DNA of 7,397 nucleotides from a virus (Duplodnaviria; Heunggongvirae; Uroviricota; Caudoviricetes). Position 1 is the first letter of the stretch. Each line of letters begins with the position of its first letter. Below, piece after piece: positions 1-7,397 of the stretch. Below the pieces are notes generated by a model. The model saw only the letters and a program-made list of their open reading frames with translations, made no database searches and was not told the DNA's origin. The DNA lies in the IMG/VR virus record IMGVR_UViG_2531839585_000005, positions 1 through 7,397 of that record, one strand, 5' to 3'. The position numbers were made by a program, and so were the translations under genes.

Positions 1-151
1 CTGGATGACATCCGGGCGGGACGCATTGAGCGCGCCATTTCACGCTGTCGCAATATCTGGGCGTCCCTGCCGGGTGCCGGTTACGGTCAGCGTGAGCATT
101 CACTGGAAAAACTGGTCACCGTCTGGCGTACCGCGGGGCGTACCGGCTTAA
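1..151 (+). CDS. K: Phage endolysin, C-terminal part (lambda R / P2 K-type lysozyme); 5' end lies outside the window, 3' end uncertain
   Basis: Frame +1 from position 1 reads ...DDIRAGRIERAISRCRNIWASLPGAGYGQREHSLEKLVTVWRTAG..., matching the conserved C-terminal motif of lambda R-type endolysins (NIWASLPGAGYGQ.EH). Frame +1 has no stop until 229-231 and runs into the lysA ATG at 166. TAA codons sit in frame +2 at 149-151 and 158-160, so a 1-bp indel near 133-140 has probably displaced the true stop. Not in the ORF track because the start is outside the window. Confidence 0.65.
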   Translation, partial: WMTSGRDALSAPFHAVAISGRPCRVPVTVSVSIHWKNWSPSGVPRGVPA

Positions 152-165
152 ACGGAGTAAACACC

Positions 166-589
166 ATGAAGAAATTATCCCTTTCACTGATGCTGAACGT
201 GTCGCTGGCGCTGTGCTGGCACTGTCCCTGATTTACCCGCAGAGCGTGGCCGTCAGTTTTGTCGCCACCTGGGCGATTCTGGGACGGTTATCTGTGTGGT
301 TGCCGGTGGTGTCGGCGTGTATGCCACGGAGTATGTACTTGAACGCTACGGGCGGGAGCTGCCACCGGAATCGCTGGCCGTGAAGATTGTCACGTCGCTG
401 TTTTTGCAGCCGGTGCCGTGGCGCAGGCGGTCAGTGGCTCTGGTAGTGATGGTGGCGACGTTTATCTCGCTGGTCGCTGCCGGGTGGATTTTTACCGCGC
501 TGATTTATCTCGTGGCATCGGTGTTCTTCCGGCTGATACGTACGGCCTGCTGTCAGCGTTTTGAGGGGCGGGAACCATGTCAAAGCTGA
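166..589 (+). pseudogene. lysA: lysA-like lysis-timing membrane protein, frame-disrupted as sequenced (needs all three + frames)
   Basis: ATG at 166 sits 7-8 nt downstream of GGAG and opens MKKLSLSLMLNVSLAL in frame +1, which stops at 229-231. The continuation ...VLALSLIYPQSVAVSFVATWAILG is in frame +3 (about 213-283). The remainder, VICVVAGGVGVYATEYVLERYGRELPPESLAVKIVTSLFLQPVPWRRRSVALVVMVATFISLVAAGWIFTALIYLVASVFF..., is frame +2 and corresponds to track ORF 296-589. Hydrophobic segments fit a small membrane protein. The stop overlaps the lysB start. Position after the endolysin matches the P2 order K-lysA-lysB-lysC. Confidence 0.6.
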
Positions 590-1020
590 TGATTGTGCTG
601 GTTGTGTTGTTATCACTGGCGGTGGCCGGTCTGTTTCTGGTGAAACACAAAAATGCCAGCCTGCGCGCCTCGCTGGACAGGGCGAACAATGTCGCCAGCG
701 GGCAGCAGACGACCATCACCATGCTGAAAAATCAGCTTCATGTTGCCCTCACCAGGGCAGACAAAAACGAGATGGCGCAGGTGGCACTGCGTCAGGAACT
801 GGAGAACGCCGCGAAGCGTGAAGCACAGCGCGAGAAAACCATCACGAGGTTACTTAATGAAAACGAGGATTTCCGCCGCTGGTATGGCGCTGACCTGCCT
901 GATGCTGTGCGCCGGTTGCACCAGCGCCCCGCCTGCACCGACGCCAGTGATTGTCCACAACGCCTGCCCGAAAGTGAGTCTTTGCCCGATGCCGGGCAGC
1001 GACCCAGAGACGAACGGTGA
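577..1020 (+). CDS. lysB: LysB, Rz-like inner-membrane spanin (i-spanin)
   Basis: Intact 147-codon ORF. N-terminal MSKLMIVLVVLLSLAVAGLFLV is a single type-II membrane anchor, followed by a charged, helix-prone periplasmic domain (EMAQVALRQELENAAKREAQREK). GAGG lies upstream of the ATG. Sits in the P2 lysis cassette position and carries an embedded out-of-frame lipoprotein gene. Confidence 0.8.
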   Translation: MSKLMIVLVVLLSLAVAGLFLVKHKNASLRASLDRANNVASGQQTTITMLKNQLHVALTRADKNEMAQVALRQELENAAKREAQREKTITRLLNENEDFRRWYGADLPDAVRRLHQRPACTDASDCPQRLPESESLPDAGQRPRDER

Positions 1021-1147
1021 TTTAAGTGCCGATATCCGGCAGCTTGAGAACGCGCTGGCGCGCTGTGCCAGCCAGGTAAAAATGATTAAACACTGTCAGG
1101 ACGAAAACGATGCTCAAACCCGACAGCCTGCGCAGGGCGCTGACTGA
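857..1147 (+). CDS. lysC: LysC, Rz1-like outer-membrane lipoprotein spanin (o-spanin), starting inside lysB in the +1 frame
   Basis: ATG at 857 preceded by GAGG. Product MKTRISAAGMALTCLMLCAGCTSAPPAPTPV... has a lipoprotein signal peptide with a lipobox-like LCAGC and a proline-rich mature region. It is 96 aa, overlaps the lysB 3' end out of frame and extends past the lysB stop, which is the classic Rz/Rz1 overlapped architecture. The track ORF 740-1147 is the same frame with an upstream alternative start. Confidence 0.75.
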   Translation: MKTRISAAGMALTCLMLCAGCTSAPPAPTPVIVHNACPKVSLCPMPGSDPETNGDLSADIRQLENALARCASQVKMIKHCQDENDAQTRQPAQGAD

Positions 1148-1571
1148 TGCCGTCACGGTGCTGAAAACACCGAATGCTGCGGATATTCGTGGATACGGGA
1201 GTATTGCCTCCACGCTGGCGGCGTCGTTGTCATTCGAAAAGCGTTACACGCTCAATGTCATTGTGACCGACTTTACCGGTGATTTTGACCTGCTCATCGT
1301 GCCGGTGCTGGCGTGGCTGCGGGTAAATCAGCCCGACATCATGACCACCGACGCAGGTCAGAAAAAGGGCTTCACGTTTTATGCAGACATCAACAATGAC
1401 AGCAGCTTTGATATCAGCATCAGCCTGATGCTGACCGAGCGAACGCTGGTCAGTGAGGTGGACGGCGCGCTGCATGTGAAGAATATCCCGGAACCTCCGC
1501 CGCCGGAGCCGGTCACCCGCCCGATGGAGCTGTATATCAATGGCGAACTCGTGAGTAAGTGGGATGAATGA
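1110..1571 (+). CDS. R: Tail completion protein R
   Basis: Intact 153-codon ORF MLKPDSLRRALTDAVTVLK...FEKRYTLNVIVTDFTGDFDLLIVPVLAWL...PEPPPPEPVTRPMELYINGELVSKWDE, recognised as P2 gpR-family. Overlaps the lysC 3' end. Its stop is fused to the S start (ATGAATGA). Confidence 0.85.
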   Translation: MLKPDSLRRALTDAVTVLKTPNAADIRGYGSIASTLAASLSFEKRYTLNVIVTDFTGDFDLLIVPVLAWLRVNQPDIMTTDAGQKKGFTFYADINNDSSFDISISLMLTERTLVSEVDGALHVKNIPEPPPPEPVTRPMELYINGELVSKWDE

Positions 1572-2016
1572 GTTTAAGCGTTTTGAAGACCGGCTGACCG
1601 GACTGATTGAGTCGCTGTCACCGTCAGGGCGTCGGCGACTGAGTGCCGAACTGGCGAAACGTCTGCGGCAGAGTCAGCAGCGTCGGGTGATGGCACAGAA
1701 AGCCCCGGATGGCACACCCTATGCGCCACGCCAGCAGCAGAGCGCCAGAAAAAAGACCGGTCGCGTTAAGCGAAAAATGTTTGCGAAACTTATCACCAGT
1801 CGTTTTTTGCATATCCGCGCCAGCCCTGAACAGGCATCAATGGAGTTTTACGGCGGGAAGTCACCGAAAATAGCCAGTGTGCATCAGTTCGGTCTGTCGG
1901 AAGAAACCCGGAAAGACGGTAAGAAAATTGATTATCCGGCGCGTCCTCTGCTCGGCTTTACCGGTGAGGATGTGCAGATGATTGAAGAGATTATCCTGGC
2001 TCACCTCGACCGTTAG
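1564..2016 (+). CDS. S: Tail completion protein S
   Basis: Intact 150-codon ORF MNEFKRFEDRLTGLIESLSPSGRRRLSAELAKRLRQSQQRRV...PLLGFTGEDVQMIEEIILAHLDR, recognised as P2 gpS-family. Start overlaps the R stop, consistent with translational coupling. Confidence 0.85.
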   Translation: MNEFKRFEDRLTGLIESLSPSGRRRLSAELAKRLRQSQQRRVMAQKAPDGTPYAPRQQQSARKKTGRVKRKMFAKLITSRFLHIRASPEQASMEFYGGKSPKIASVHQFGLSEETRKDGKKIDYPARPLLGFTGEDVQMIEEIILAHLDR

Positions 2017-2082
2017 TTGTGCCATTCCCGACACCTCATCGTTACATTGCCGCCGGTATGACCCGGCGGCATCCTTCCCGTT
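2017..2082 (+). promoter_or_regulatory. S-V intergenic region with an 8-bp GC-rich hairpin (2049-2056 / 2063-2070) and a TGT-N10-ACA partial dyad (2018-2033); candidate late-operon promoter or RNA element for the V-W-J-I-H-G operon
   Basis: GCCGCCGG (2049-2056) and CCGGCGGC (2063-2070) are exact reverse complements around a 6-nt loop, with no following T-run. TGT at 2018-2020 and ACA at 2031-2033 resemble the TGT-N12-ACA Ogr-box of P2 late promoters, but the spacing is 10 nt rather than 12. In P2 a late promoter lies upstream of V. Confidence 0.3.
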
Positions 2083-2710
2083 ATGAACACTCTCGCAAAT
2101 ATCCAGGAACTCGCGCGCGCACTGCGCAACATGATCCGCACCGGCCTTGTCGTCGAAACCAACCTTAAAGCCGGTCGCTGCCGTGTGCAGACCGGCGGCA
2201 TGTGCACCGACTGGCTTCAGTGGCTGACTCGTGCCGGGCGTTCGCGCACTGGTGGGCACCTTCCGTGGGGGACAGGTGCTGATTCTGGCCGTGGGCGGTG
2301 AACTCGACACGGCGTTCGTTCTGCCGGGGATTTATTCCGGTGATAACCCCGCGCCGTCTGCGTCGGCGGATGCCCTGCATATCCGTTTCCCTGACGGGGC
2401 GGTGATTGAGTATGAACCCGAAACCAGCGCACTCACGGTAAGCGGAATTAAAACGGCCAGCGTGACGGCTTCTGATTCTGTTACTGCCACGGTGCCGGTG
2501 GTCACGGTGAAAGCATCAACCCGCGTACCCTGGACACACCGGAGGTGGTTGCACCAACAGGCTGATTACGGCACGCTGGAAGTGCAGAAGGGCGGGACGA
2601 TGCGCGGCAACATTGAACACACCGGCGGTGAACTCTCATCAAACGGTAAGGTACTGCATACCCATAAACACCCCGGCGACAGCGGCGGCACAACCGGGAG
2701 CCCTCTATGA
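2083..2710 (+). pseudogene. V: Baseplate spike / central hub protein V, frame-disrupted as sequenced
   Basis: Frame +1 ORF 2083-2301 gives MNTLANIQELARALRNMIRTGLVVETNLKAGRCRVQTGGMCTDWLQWLTRAGRSRT..., the gpV N-terminus. The continuation WWAPSVG is in frame +3, then QVLILAVGGELDTAFVLPGIYSGDNPAPSASADALHIRFPDGAVIEYEPETSALTVSGIKTASVTASDSVTATVPVVTVKASTRV is in frame +2 (track ORF 2231-2710). A second cluster at about 2525-2575 passes through frames +1 (TLDTPEVV) and +3 (CTNRLIT) before returning to +2 (GTLEVQKGGTMRGNIEHTGGELSSNGKVLHTHKHPGDSGGTTGSPL). The stop overlaps the W start (ATGA). Confidence 0.8.
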
Positions 2711-3054
2711 CAGCGCGTTATCTCGGAATGAATCGCAGTGATGGCCTGACTGTCACTGACCTTGAGCATATCAGCCAGAGTATCGGCGATATCCTGCGCA
2801 CACCGGTCGGCTCACGGGTGATGCGTCGTGATTACGGCTCGTTGCTGGCGTCAATGATTGACCAGCCGCAGACCCCGGCGCTTGAGTTGCAGATTAAGGT
2901 CGCCTGTTACATGGCGGTGCTGAAATGGGAACCCCGCGTCACCCTGTCATCCGTCACCACTGAGCGCAGTTTTGACGGGCGAATGACAGTTACGTTAACC
3001 GGCCAGCACAACGACACCGGCCAGCCACTTTCGTTAACCATCCCTGTGAGTTGA
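2707..3054 (+). CDS. W: Baseplate wedge protein W (T4 gp25-like)
   Basis: Intact 115-codon ORF MTARYLGMNRSDGLTVTDLEHISQSIGDILRTPVGSRVMRRDYGSLLASMIDQPQTP...SLTIPVS, recognised as P2 gpW-family with the expected length. Start overlaps the V stop. Confidence 0.9.
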   Translation: MTARYLGMNRSDGLTVTDLEHISQSIGDILRTPVGSRVMRRDYGSLLASMIDQPQTPALELQIKVACYMAVLKWEPRVTLSSVTTERSFDGRMTVTLTGQHNDTGQPLSLTIPVS

Positions 3055-3058
3055 AACC

Positions 3059-3949
3059 ATGCCGATTATCGACCTGAACCAGCTACCTGCACCGGATGTG
3101 GTCGAGGAGCTGGACTTTGAAACCATTCTTGCTGAACGCAAGGCGACACTGATTTCTCTTTACCCGGAAGACCAGCAGGAGGCGGTCGCCCGTACCCTGA
3201 CGCTGGAATCTGAGCCTCTCGCCAAACTGCTGGAGGAAAATGCTTATCGTGAGCTTATCTGGCGTCAGCGTGTGAATGAGGCCGCACGGGCGGTGATGCT
3301 GGCCTGTGCCGCCGGTAATGACCTTGATGTGATTGGTGCCAATTACAACACCACGCGCCTGACTATCACCCCGGCAGATGATTCGACCATTCCGCCGACA
3401 CCGGCAGTGATGGAATCTGACACCGATTATCGTCTGCGTATTCAGCAGGCGTTTGAGGCTTAAGCGTCGCCGGGTCGGTGGGGCTATCAGTATCATGGTC
3501 GCAGTGCCGACGGGCGTGTCGCGGATATTCTGTACCAGTCCGTCTCCGGCCTGCGTCACCATCTCGTGCTGTCACGTGAAAATAACGGTGTGCATCCGAA
3601 GACTGCTGGCGGGTGCGTAACGCCCTTAATGGCGAGGACGTCAGGCCGGTGGCCGACCGCGTGACCGTGCAGTCTGCCGCCATGTTGAATACCAGATAAA
3701 CGCCACGCTTTACCTTTACCCTGGTCCCGAAAGGAACCCATCCGCGCGCCGCCGTGAAAAAACTGGAAGCTAATCACGGCACAGCACCGGCTGGGGCGGA
3801 CATCCGTCTGTCTGCCATTTATGCCGCTTTGCATGTGGAAGGGTGCAGCGTGTCGAACTGGCTGCACCCTGGCCGACATCGTGCTCAACAGTACGCAGGC
3901 GTCTTTCTGTACCGAATACCGCGTCGTGACCGGAGGCTCGGATGAGTGA
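3059..3949 (+). pseudogene. J: Baseplate protein J, intact for the first ~134 codons, then heavily frame-disrupted
   Basis: Frame +2 ORF 3059-3463 gives MPIIDLNQLPAPDVVEELDFETILAERKATLISLYPEDQQEAVARTLTLESEPLAKLLEENAYRELIWRQRVNEAARAVMLACAAGNDLDVIGANYNTTRLTITPADDSTIPPTPAVMESDTDYRLRIQQAFE and then hits TAA. Downstream, recognisable gpJ segments appear piecemeal across all three + frames: YQYHGRSADGRVADI, TSPSPACVTIS, VLSRENNGV, VRNALNGEDVRPVADRVTVQSAA, VEYQINATLYLYPGPE, VKKLEA, ITAQHRLGR, DIRLSAIYAALHVEG, LADIVLNSTQASFCTEYRVVTGGSDE. The final segment is in frame with a TGA at 3947-3949 that overlaps the I start. Full-length gpJ is about 300 aa as I recall. Confidence 0.8.
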
Positions 3950-4472
3950 TTCGCGACTGCTGCCGACCGGCTCATCACCGCTTGAAGTCGCCGCCGCAAA
4001 AGCCTGTGCGGAAATTGAAAAAACGCCGGTCAGTATTCGTGAGCTGTGGAACCCGGATACCTGTCCGGCAAATCTGCTGCCGTGGCTGGCGTGGGCGTTT
4101 TCGGTCGACAGGTGGGATGAAAAGTGGCCGGAAGCGACAAAACGCGCCGTTATCCGCGATGCCTATTTCATCCACTGTCATAAAGGCACAATAGGTGCAA
4201 TCCGGCGTGTGGTGGAGCCGCTCGGCTATCTCATCAACGTGACGGAGTGGTGGGAAAACAGTGACCCGCCCGGCACCTTCCGGCTTGATATTGGTGTACT
4301 GGAAAGCGGCATCACAGAGGCAATGTATCAGGAAATGGAACGGCTGATTGCTGATGCCAAACCTGCAAGCCGTCACCTTATTGGCCTGAACATTACCCGG
4401 GACATTCCCGGCTACCTGTTCGCCGGTGGTGTGGCTTACGACGGCGATGTAATTACGGTTTATCCCGGATAA
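3942..4472 (+). CDS. I: Baseplate protein I
   Basis: Intact 176-codon ORF MSDSRLLPTGSSPLEVAAAKACAEIEKTPVSIRELWNPDTCPANLLPWLAWAFSVDRWDEKWPEATKRAVIRDAYFIHCHKGTIGAIRRVVEPLGYLINVTEWWENSDPPGTFRLDIGVLESG..., recognised as P2 gpI-family with the expected length. Start overlaps the J 3' end. Confidence 0.9.
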   Translation: MSDSRLLPTGSSPLEVAAAKACAEIEKTPVSIRELWNPDTCPANLLPWLAWAFSVDRWDEKWPEATKRAVIRDAYFIHCHKGTIGAIRRVVEPLGYLINVTEWWENSDPPGTFRLDIGVLESGITEAMYQEMERLIADAKPASRHLIGLNITRDIPGYLFAGGVAYDGDVITVYPG

Positions 4473-4482
4473 GTGAGGAATA

Positions 4483-6648
4483 ATGAGCACAAAATTCAGA
4501 ACCGTTATCACCACTGCCGGTGCAGCAAAGCTGGCAGCGGCAACCGCGCCGGGAGGGCGGAAGGTCAACATTACCACGATGGCCGTCGGGGATGGCGGTG
4601 GTAAATTGCCTGTCCCGGATGCCGGACAGACCGGGCTTATCCACGAAGTCTGGCGACATGCGCTGAACAAAATCAGCCAGGACAAACGAAACAGTAATTA
4701 TATTATCGCAGAGCTGGTTATTCCGCCGGAGGTGGGCGGTTTCTGGATGCGTGAACTTGGCCTGTACGATGATGCGGGAACTAATTGCCGTGGCGAACAT
4801 GGCCGAAAGTTATAAGCCAGCCTTGCCGAAGGCTCAGGGCGTTCGCAGACCTGCGCATGGTCATCATCGTCAGCAGTGTGGCCTCAGTGGGCTGACCATT
4901 GACACCACAACGGTGATGGCACGCAGGATTACGTTGATGACAAAATTGCAGACATGAACAGTCACGACGTCACCCGACGCCTCGCTGACCGCAAAAGGTT
5001 TTACTCAGTTAAGCATGCGACCAACAGCACGTCTGAAACACTGGCCGCAACGCCGAAAGCGGTAAAGGCCGCGTATGACTTGCTAACGGGAAATAACGCC
5101 AGGAGCCACCAAGCGCGAAAAGGCCTTGTCCAGCTCAGTAGGCCACCAACAGCGATTCTGAAACGCTTGCGGCAACGCCAAAGGCGGTTAAGACAGCGTA
5201 TGACCTTGCTAACGGGAAATACACTGCACAGGAGCCACCACGCGCGAAAGGTCTTGTCAGCTCAGTAGCGCCACCAACAGGATTCTGAAACGCTGGCTGC
5301 AACATCAAAAGCGGTGAAGTCTGCCTATGACAATGCTGAAAAACGTCTTCAGAAAGATCAGAACGGTGCGGATATTCCGGGAAAGGATACCTTCACGAAA
5401 AATATCGGTGCCTGTCGTGCTTATAGCGGCGCTTTGAGCACTGAAGCCGGAAACTGGACAACCGCTCAGTTTATTGAATGGCTGGATTCCCGTGGTGCAT
5501 TTAATCATCCGTACTGGATGTGCAAAGGCTCCTGGTCATATGCAAATAACAAAATCATTACGGATACCGGATGTGGTGATATCCACCTGGCTGGTTGTGT
5601 CGTCGAGGTCATGGGAACTAAATCTGCAATCACTATTCGAGTGACCACGCCGACAACATCAAGTGGTGGCGGTACAACCAGCGCGCAATTCACTTACATA
5701 AATCATGGGGACGGCTACTCCCCCGGCTGGCGTCGTGACTGGAATCGTCAGGGCGACGCAATGACCGGAACGATTAATCAGGATGGCGGAAGCCAGAATG
5801 CCTATATGTCTACGGCCTTATGTTCAGGCACCAGAGGCGGCAAAAAATATCTCAGAAAGTTTCGTGGTGGAGAAGGAGACACTATCTGGCATGAAACAGT
5901 ACAGGGCGGGGTAATTCGCTGGGCGACAGGAAACTATGACGCTCAGGAAGAATTATCACTCAGCTCCGCTTATGGTCTCCGTTCAAGAGGTGAGATTACA
6001 TCACTCAGTGCTAATGGTCTGCGCATTGCTTATGGCAATTATGGATTCTTTATCAGGAATGATGGCGGCAGCACATATTTAATGCTGACGGCCTCTGGCG
6101 ATAAATTAGGCACATAGAACAATTTAAGACCGCTGACTATAAATAACGCCAAGGGCGCAGTATCAATGGGGCATGGCCTGAATGTTACTGGTGATATTGT
6201 CTCAAGTACCAAAGTACGTGCCGGTAGCGGGAAAAAATTCACGGTCAGCAGCAGTAATACATCCACGAAGGAAGCCGCATTCAATTTGTGGGGAAACTCA
6301 AGTCGTCCGGTGGTGGCTGAATTAGGTGATGATGCAGGCTGGCATTTTTACAGTCAGAGAAATACAGATAACAGCATCACGTTTGCTGTTAACGGTCAGG
6401 TATCACCATCTAACTATAGTAATTTTGATTCACGCTATGTCCGGGATATCCGGCTTGGTGGTGCTGCCACATACAAACCTGCGAACAATGGCATGACATG
6501 GACACATCAGGCACCGTCCGGGTGTGTATATTCCGGCATTATTGTTCAGGATACCGGCTCAAACTCTGCCGATAACATTGGTGGCATATATTACAGACCG
6601 GTGCAGAAATACATTAACGGGACTTGGTATAACGTGGCGCAGGTATAA
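4483..6648 (+). pseudogene. H: Tail fibre protein H (mosaic). 5' third is frame-disrupted, one in-frame TAG at 6115-6117, otherwise continuous
   Basis: ATG at 4483 preceded by GAGG. Frame +1 reads MSTKFRTVITTAGAAKLAAATAPGGRKVNITTMAVGDGGGKLPVPDAGQTGLIHEVWRHALNKISQDKRNSNYIIAELVIPPEVGGFWMRELGLYDDAGT, the gpH N-terminus. From about 4778 the continuation (LIAVANMAESYKPAL, LAEGSGR, RMVIIVSSVASV, LTIDTTTVMA, then the ATNSTSETLAATPKAVK repeats) is scattered over three frames up to about 5280. From 5281 to 6648 a single frame +1 runs cleanly apart from the TAG at 6115-6117 (track ORFs 5314-6117 and 6166-6648). The C-terminus ...NFDSRYVRDIRLG...RPVQKYINGTWYNVAQV is the conserved P2-H-type tail-fibre terminus. 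Confidence 0.85.
5006..5337 (+). repeat. Three imperfect direct tandem repeats of ~126 bp inside H, encoding a repeated tail-fibre motif
   Basis: Copy 1 about 5006-5130, copy 2 about 5131-5258, copy 3 (partial, diverging) about 5259-5337. Each encodes a variant of QLSSATNS(T/D)SETLAAT(P/S)KAVK(A/T/S)AYDLANGKYTAQEATTARKGLV. The copies differ by substitutions and 1-bp indels. Confidence 0.7.
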
Positions 6649-6651
6649 TTT

Positions 6652-7179
6652 ATGCAGCATTTGATAAATATAACGGCAGGTAATCCAAAAACGGTTGAAC
6701 AATATCAATTGACAAAGGACTTTGATGTTGTCTGGTTTTTTTCAGAAGATGGTAAGAACTGGTACGAAGAACAAAAGTATTTTGCTGATGACACGATAAA
6801 AATAGCGTACGACAAAGATAATATCATCCGCTATGTGGAAAAGGATGTGACAGCTATCAGACCGGATGGATTAAGTGTGGTTGAAGTGGCGGATATTACT
6901 GCTAACCGACGGGCGGATATTTCAGGGGGCTGGATGTTTAAGGACGGCAAAGTGATTAAACGCATTTATACGGCAGATGAATTGCGGCGGCAGGCAGAAA
7001 TTCGGAAAGTCAGACTTCTTGCAGATGCTGAATCCGTGATTTTGCCGCTGGAGCGCGCTGTCAGGCTGAACATGGCAACAGATGAGGAGCGTAGCCGACT
7101 GGAAGCATGGGAGCGTTACAGCGTTCTGGTCAGTCGTGTGGATCCTGCAAATCCTGAATGGCCGGAAATGCCGCAATAA
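6652..7179 (+). CDS. G: Tail fibre assembly protein G (Tfa-type chaperone)
   Basis: Intact 175-codon ORF starting 3 nt after the H stop: [44 protein letters not shown]...[42 protein letters not shown]. The C-terminal half is recognised as the P2 gpG/Tfa family. Position immediately 3' of the tail-fibre gene fits. Confidence 0.9.
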
Positions 7180-7213
7180 GTTGTATGAGTTCTGGTGTGA
7201 GCTTACACATCTA

Positions 7214-7255
7214 TGGCACAGAGTAAAGCCTAATCTGACAGTTCGCTCTGTGCCA
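7214..7255. repeat. Perfect 10-bp inverted repeat (TGGCACAGAG / CTCTGTGCCA) separated by 22 nt, in the A+T-rich region after G
   Basis: Positions 7214-7223 and 7246-7255 are exact reverse complements. No T-run follows, so it is not a canonical intrinsic terminator. It could be a protein-binding site, an RNA stem-loop at the operon 3' end, or the junction of inserted DNA. Confidence 0.5.
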
Positions 7256-7397
7256 AGAGCGGACGTTACTACTACTCGACCTAAAGTAAAGCAATTGTAC
7301 TCATTAAATAGTGGTAATTGGGTCTGGTGCTTAATCGAACGAAATCTCATGTTAGGCGAAAAAAACGTCTGAAAAATCGATTAACACATACACCTGT

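Follow-up and report, generated by a model that had tools for sequence, protein, structure and literature searches.

The window, by which we mean the whole stretch of DNA that was analysed (7397 bases), is the entire draft contig APZI01000619.1 of assembly GCA_000356865.2. On its plus strand lie the late genes of a P2-like phage (Peduovirus), from lysA to G. Annotation of the backbone was read from the homologous regions of vB_YpM_46, E. coli 120899 and P2, and the order V-W-J-I-H-G, closing the V operon, runs collinearly with the annotation of P2, of vB_YpM_46 and of prophage regions in E. coli. The features recognised are given below; genes were placed by ORF and Pfam analysis, and for the other features the supporting evidence is indicated in brackets.

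1–4482, plus strand: P2-type backbone, comprising the 3' end of K, lysA, lysB/lysC, R, S, V, W, J and I (ORFs, Pfam, annotation of relatives)
Window start, plus strand: K, 3' end only
296–589, plus strand: lysA
577–1020, plus strand: lysB
Between lysB and R in the gene order, plus strand: lysC
1110–1571, plus strand: R
1564–2016, plus strand: S
2083–2710, plus strand: V
2707–3054, plus strand: W
3059 to about 3945, plus strand: J
3942–4472, plus strand: I
4483–6648, plus strand: tail fibre H
4483–5019, plus strand: proximal H with the collar domain PF12571 (Pfam on the ORF 4483–4815 and on the homologue)
5020–5331, plus strand: 2.5 copies of a 132-base (44-residue) phage tail fibre repeat, PF03406 (tandem-repeat search; Pfam on the homologue)
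5340–5740, plus strand: sub-module A of distal H (start of homology to Sv' of D108, P1 and vB_YpM_44; match to mEp460; breaks at 5740)
5741–6400, plus strand: sub-module B of distal H (Pfam; matches to T4-like phages; breaks at 6191 and 6458 in E. coli genomes)
About 5950–6114, plus strand: Gp34_trimer domain (Pfam)
6115–6117, plus strand: in-frame TAG in H (TGG or TAT in relatives)
6401–6648, plus strand: H tip, last ~80 residues (co-inherited with the G N-terminal domain)
6652–7179, plus strand: tail-fibre assembly protein G, 175 residues
6652–6999, plus strand: G N-terminal domain, residues 1–116 (PF02413; alignment to Mu U; composition; variable among Peduoviruses)
7000–7179, plus strand: G C-terminal domain, residues 117–175 (conserved in all nine Peduoviruses compared)
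7180–7397, no strand: non-coding, G+C 0.41 (3' of G, contig end)

At 97.2% identity and 100% coverage, prophages in chromosomes of enterotoxigenic E. coli are the nearest complete sequences, together with the Yersinia phages vB_YpM_46 and P37. The contig stops 218 bases past G, at the beginning of the variable region in which fun(Z) is located in P2. Both the S-V gap and the sequence 3' of G were searched, and no terminator-like or promoter-like site was found in either. In H an N-terminal collar is followed by PF03406 repeats, and a 97% identical intact homologue has PF12571 and four PF03406 stretches by Pfam. The repeat array counts 3.5 copies in the complete homologue L002, and in P37 the same number of copies as in the window, so that loss of a 132-base unit by assembly collapse need not be invoked. 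The reading frame of H in the contig is not intact: one-base gaps (4781–5280) and the TAG at 6115–6117 divide it into five or more ORFs.

When compared with its closest relative, the contig shows 57 one-base gaps and not a single insertion. The gaps are clustered at 134–282, 1168–1194, 2228–2568, 3455–3868 and 4781–5280, with none past 5331, and they fragment V, J and H, the H frame being broken from 4781 on. Among the nine Peduoviruses described below, 31 of the 45 scorable gap columns (69%) are polymorphic, vs 11% of columns elsewhere (odds ratio 17, p 2.5e-19). Since the gaps fall, unlike real mutations, at sites that vary in other phages, they are probably an assembly artefact, that is, the consensus of at least two co-assembled P2-like copies from which ambiguous columns were dropped. 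Prophage decay was rejected as the main cause of the frameshifts, all of them being deletions at sites polymorphic among relatives, and users of this assembly should not take the frameshifts in V, J and H for such decay. The gaps take about 1% of the backbone bases and leave the composition results reported below unaffected.

A sequence-only reading of the window had proposed that the DNA becomes conspicuously A+T-rich from about 5300 through most of G, with G+C-rich composition returning only at the G C-terminus (about 7000), and that this reflects a laterally acquired host-range cassette grafted onto a P2-type backbone. The drop was located exactly where proposed: in the whole 7397-base window the best single G+C change point by maximum likelihood is base 5300, with a log-likelihood ratio of 35.9 that was reached by none of 500 shuffles of 50-base blocks, and two segments were preferred over one by BIC. 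The G+C content is 0.573 over 1–5299 and 0.464 over 5301–7397. The backbone genes (1–4482) have a G+C of 0.576 and a GC3 of about 0.63, and 4483–5299 is still backbone-like (0.556). G+C falls to 0.471 over 5300–7179 and to 0.414 over 6652–6999. A finer segmentation, alongside which the profile was also drawn with 300-base windows, gave 0.479 for 5301–6640, 0.343 for 6641–6850 (the lowest value, at the start of G) and 0.507 for 6851–7280. The return at the end of G was borne out in part: raw G+C is indeed 0.533 in the last 180 bases (7000–7179), but the rise begins nearer to 6850 and, as detailed below, codon choice stays cassette-like.

Codon usage, checked against the backbone genes, likewise differs past about 5300. 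GC3 is 0.626 in 1100 in-frame backbone codons and drops to 0.454 in distal H (chi-square p 8e-10 vs backbone), to 0.414 in G codons 1–116 (p 1e-5) and to 0.49 in G codons 117–175 (p 0.05). Synonymous codon usage of the cassette vs the backbone gave a chi-square of 103.6 vs a permuted mean of 41.8, a value reached in 0 of 2000 permutations, to be read knowing that backbone usage is itself somewhat uneven (chi-square 65.2 between its two halves). From backbone to cassette the share of CTG falls from 0.56 to 0.32, that of ACC from 0.48 to 0.19 and that of GAC from 0.47 to 0.26. When located on L002, the intact homologue, the change point in GC3 is spread over the H repeat zone, at the equivalent of window positions ~4930–5290, and is not sharp at 5300.

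A shift of this kind might have no separate history and follow only from the residues that abound in a beta-rich fibre and in its chaperone (Asn, Ser, Thr, Gly, Tyr, Lys, Ile). We therefore recoded the proteins of the cassette using the codon preferences of the backbone, which splits the G+C drop into two shares. Of the 0.089 lost in distal H, 0.035 is due to amino-acid content and 0.055 to codon choice (~40% and ~60%), while in the G N-terminal domain, where the drop is 0.156, the two shares are 0.092 and 0.063 (~60% and ~40%). In the G C-terminal domain amino-acid content contributes −0.028 and codon choice 0.055. The codon-choice offset is thus steady, at 0.055–0.063, through to the end of G. 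The rise of raw G+C in the last 180 bases is an amino-acid effect, wholly explained by content (GC1 0.68); as the codon-choice deficit of this domain (~0.055) equals that of the rest of the cassette, backbone codon usage is not regained within G. Protein composition accordingly has a real share in the shift, but as its sole cause it is very unlikely, and it is already largely refuted by the fall in GC3 from 0.63 to 0.45 and 0.41 and by the permutation test on synonymous usage; the mosaic junctions and the homologues in unrelated phages described in the following paragraphs also speak for a separate history.

Nine Peduoviruses were aligned to the window (P2, L-413C, HQ103, P37, P24C9, fiAA91-ss, vB_EcoM-12474III, vB_YpM_46 and the E. 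coli 120899 prophage). Up to about 5200 the backbone is 92–100% identical in all nine, proximal H apart, of which P37, P24C9 and L-413C carry a second allele (75–83% identity over 4401–5000). Beyond this point homology is lost at different places in different phages, namely at 5194–5319 in P2 and HQ103, at 5079–5386 in P24C9 and L-413C, at 5740 in 12474III and fiAA91-ss, and at ~6458 in vB_YpM_46 and P37. Over 6601–7000 three of the nine phages are 96–98% identical to the window and the other six 67–80%, and over 7001–7200 all nine are back at 83–95%. Exactly the same three phages that share the H tip (93–98%) share the G N-terminal domain (96–98%), and the remaining six, with a G N-terminal domain at 67–80%, have a different tip, so that tip and G N-domain alleles agree in nine of nine phages.

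The same breaks recur on a larger scale. In a set of 5426 complete E. coli genomes, a match to at least part of the window is present in 2251, but only 469 have any of 5340–7000 and 146 have most of it; partial matches end at the recurring positions 5740, 6191, 6458 and 6388/6419, and those spanning 6388/6419–7000 run across both H and G. Overall, recurring junctions lie at ~5194–5386, 5740, 6388–6458 and 7000. The repeat array at 5020–5331 is the junction zone in which the backbone ends, and what lies beyond it is made up of at least three sub-modules, each with its own junctions (~5340, 5740, 6388–6458 and 7000), rather than of a single cassette.

A composition step at a tandem repeat, which is a typical mis-assembly point, might also be artefactual, the contig being a chimera of two prophages joined at the repeat array, and the signs of a mixed-copy consensus do extend up to 5280 with none after. 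Nevertheless, L002 and six further complete E. coli chromosomes (100% coverage) contain the same junction at 96–97% identity, as do the isolated phages vB_YpM_46 and P37, the latter with the repeat copy number of the window. A chimeric contig is on this evidence extremely unlikely.

Outside the Peduoviruses, the cassette is related to tail-fibre genes carried by quite different backbones. Nucleotide identity is ~70% with S'/U' of D108 and SfMu and 70–72% with S/U' of P1 and RCS47, and a lambdoid tail-fibre gene (mEp460) is 76% identical over 5302–5740. A 65-base island at 6038–6102 is up to 92% identical to gp34 genes of T4-like phages. At the protein level distal H is 71% identical to its counterpart in D108 and 56% in P1, G is 66–71% identical, and distal H also matches the structures of Mu S and S'. 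The nearest relative outside the P2 group is the 49-kb Yersinia phage vB_YpM_44, not a Peduovirus, with 83% nucleotide and 87% protein identity over 5350–6191; over the final 86 residues of H the proteins are 81% identical. Its homologue is the silent cassette of an invertible segment that adjoins a hin invertase gene, within an unrelated and A+T-richer genome (nearby baseplate genes have a G+C of 0.38–0.40). These findings, joined to the same backbone carrying varying distal H and G N-terminal parts, uphold the proposed lateral acquisition of a host-range cassette on a P2-type backbone.

Three phages, D108 (gin), P1 (cin) and vB_YpM_44 (hin), thus carry homologues of the cassette within an invertible segment. 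In the G/C segments of Mu/D108 and P1, where Gin or Cin flips Sv-U and Sv'-U' cassettes, the counterparts of the window are Sv' and U/U', with homology from ~5345 on and the same composition. Similarity between the window and D108 or vB_YpM_44 sets in ~25 bases inside the gix/hix crossover site of these phages, and in the alignment this site is replaced, in the window, by the end of the P2-type repeat. The window was searched for gix/cix/hix crossover sites, and no match to the AAACCNNGGTTT core beyond chance was found. Neither a serine invertase gene nor a second inverted cassette is present among the ORFs of the window, which ends 218 bases past G, and in L002 the next gene after G is a hypothetical protein, not an annotated invertase. 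An invertible module at this locus was ruled out, there being no site above chance and the site being missing in the alignment. Whereas the Mu/D108 and P1 segments flip, the P2-type module, with no site, invertase or second cassette, is fixed here and is swapped only by recombination between genomes; it starts at about the same point as the segment flipped by Gin, Cin or Hin.

G belongs to the Tfa chaperones, since it has a Caudo_TAP domain (PF02413, E 6e-33) and aligns over residues 1–175 with Mu U (PDB 5YVQ chain B, E 2e-81). Its C-terminal domain has 83–95% nucleotide identity across all nine Peduoviruses and is 78–84% identical at the protein level to P2 G, P1 U and D108 U, while its N-terminal domain is variable and matches the fibre tip. 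In Tfa proteins, whose modular action has been described (PMC9608196), the fibre is bound by the variable N-domain and trimerisation occurs via the conserved C-domain, and Mu U physically binds the fibre and is needed for its folding (PMC9608196, citing North et al. 2019). Co-inheritance of the tip and the G N-domain fits this structural work, in which the N-domain is the fibre-binding part (PMC9608196). G of the window resembles Mu U (PDB 5YVQ, complex with fibre S; North et al. 2019) in PF02413, in the full-length alignment, in a variable N- and conserved C-domain and in the inheritance of the N-domain with the tip; Mu U has been solved as a structure with its fibre, whereas the G allele of the window is known here from sequence.

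The low G+C of the cassette is the same whichever allele is carried, P2's included. In D108, P1, vB_YpM_44 and the nine Peduoviruses, Sv parts have a G+C of 0.44–0.48, U-type N-domains 0.39–0.43 and C-domains 0.47–0.53. In P2 (NC_001895; genome G+C 0.502) essential structural and lysis genes have a G+C of 0.53–0.63 and a GC3 of 0.58–0.72, with the exception of distal H and G: G+C and GC3 are 0.48 and 0.45 for H residues 251–669, 0.39 and 0.36 for G residues 1–116, and 0.53 and 0.48 for G residues 117–175, while H residues 1–250 have a G+C of 0.55. P2 shares with the window the V-W-J-I-H-G order, ~96% backbone identity up to 5194, the domain plan of H, a 175-residue G and this composition pattern. 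On the contrary, there is no nucleotide homology between the two over 5320–6230, protein identity is only 59% for the tip and 69% for the G N-domain, and orf30, present in P2, is absent from the window. Since every allele, that of P2 included, has the low G+C, the shift is a family-wide signature and not a recent event in this contig. The P2 non-essential inserts orf30, fun(Z), tin and old have a G+C of 0.33–0.35; we considered whether distal H and G could be such moron inserts, which are often on the opposite strand, and rejected this, both being essential virion-assembly genes on the V operon strand with a G+C of 0.41–0.48.

The low GC3 could instead be held by selection acting on the module, through slow translation favouring trimer folding or through weaker expression of the genes that close the V operon, and not be a relic of origin. 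The same composition is indeed found in an A+T-richer (vB_YpM_44) and a G+C-richer (P2) backbone, and the codon-choice offset is steady over three different domains. However, a shared pool with rapid exchange would give the same constancy without selection, and other trimeric tail proteins of P2, such as the spike V, are backbone-like in composition. We consider this quite unlikely and, as for an amino-acid effect or a chimeric contig, at most a minor contributor.

Taken together, the observed step in composition, the junctions, the relatives found in other backbones and the way in which tip and G N-domain are inherited as a pair argue that ~5340–7000 is an exchangeable host-range module of a P2-like phage, made up of the distal, receptor-binding part of H and the fibre-binding N-domain of G and drawn from a shared pool, to which we assign a probability of about 0.85. 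This gene pool would be common to enterobacterial phages of the P2, Mu, P1 and lambdoid types, extending by short motifs to T4-like ones, and would have its own composition (G+C 0.40–0.48, GC3 0.35–0.47) in any backbone; as the composition of the pool is constant, the module stands out from the G+C-rich structural genes of P2. Modules would be swapped via recombination at conserved stretches, with putative swap points at the end of the repeat array in H (~5200–5340), at motifs near 5740 and 6400 and at the conserved G C-domain (~7000). Turnover by recombination may, in light of published work, outpace the drift of a module toward P2-backbone composition. In the same light, the module would set the host range, the G N-domain would bind the fibre tip and the G C-domain would trimerise.

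The proposed graft thus stands as regards the foreign nature of the module; it does not as regards a single cassette, at least three sub-modules being recognised, nor as regards a recent event in this prophage. From composition alone a transfer can be neither dated nor given a direction, and what the shift marks is an old, continually exchanged gene pool that is family-wide. An exchangeable tail-fibre tip with its chaperone is already a known phenomenon, for P2 since 1992. In that year Haggard-Ljungquist, Halling and Calendar reportedly proposed horizontal transfer of the P2 tail-fibre genes. Their work (Haggard-Ljungquist et al. 1992, PMID 1531648) is cited on this subject in the reference list of PMC2266997. 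Furthermore, host range was altered when the C-terminal region of H in P2 was replaced and the matching chaperone gene was supplied from the same plasmid (PMC9942202).

A more general proposal, which we put forward tentatively and hold to be possible rather than probable, is that tail-fibre tips and chaperones constitute a pan-phage enterobacterial gene pool with its own equilibrium composition, kept either by fast exchange or by selection on trimer translation. It is suggested by a synonymous-site offset that is constant over distal H and both G domains and at the same level in P2-, Mu-, P1-like and other backbones. If true, the composition of the pool might be usable as a quantitative clock of host-range module turnover. 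As to this prophage itself, the step at 5300 marks the beginning of its receptor-binding module and has little import beyond annotation. For the design of P2/P4 particles with altered host ranges, the positions ~5340, 5740, 6400 and 7000 offer natural splice points, and the co-inheritance of the tip and the G N-domain confirms that in such designs the N-domain of the chaperone must move together with the tip.

Mosaicism in the tail fibre was also found upstream of the G+C step at about 5300. Over window positions 4401-5000 the proximal part of H occurs as a second allele class in P37, P24C9 and L-413C (75-86% identity), which in L-413C also takes in the last bases of I. No large composition change accompanies this second class, thus indicating that the fibre is mosaic on this side of the step too. 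A 132-base tail-fibre repeat was present in the window and in the E. coli 120899 prophage (L002), an intact near relative, as follows:

Window 5020-5331, repeat array, 2.5 copies
L002 6565-7020, repeat array, 3.5 copies

The copy number of P37 is the same as that of the window.

Within distal H, a 65-base island (6038-6102) falls in the Gp34_trimer Pfam domain and shows up to 92% identity to the gp34 genes, coding for the long-tail-fibre proximal subunit, of many T4-like phages; it is likely a common motif used for recombination. The closest relative of distal H outside the P2 group was a silent cassette of the Yersinia phage vB_YpM_44 (L005), an unclassified 49-kb phage having the following segment:

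L005 5329-10424, hin invertase gene adjoining two opposed fibre-tip and chaperone cassettes

This is an invertible host-range segment of the Mu/P1 style. Across G (window 6600-7200) the G-over-C skew was strongly positive (0.26-0.33) and the A-over-T skew was likewise positive, making the coding strand purine-rich.

When compared with the closest E. coli prophage, the window carries 57 one-base gaps and no insertions, by which V, J and H are split into several ORFs. The gaps cluster at:

Window 134-282
Window 1168-1194
Window 2228-2568
Window 3455-3868
Window 4781-5280

Among nine Peduoviruses, 69% of the 45 gap columns that were scorable were polymorphic versus 11% of the other columns (p = 2.5e-19). 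This pattern probably arose because prophage copies were assembled together into one consensus, with ambiguous columns dropped. An in-frame TAG in distal H (6115-6117), replaced by TGG in vB_YpM_46 and P37 and by TAT in E. coli 120899, could be either a true nonsense mutation or a base-call error.

The genes S and V are separated by only 66 bases (2017-2082), and orf30, an A+T-rich gene (G+C 0.34) on the opposite strand, is not present in this gap. It lies between S and V in P2, vB_YpM_46 and 12474III, whereas L-413C, HQ103, P37 and the E. coli 120899 prophage lack it, like the window.
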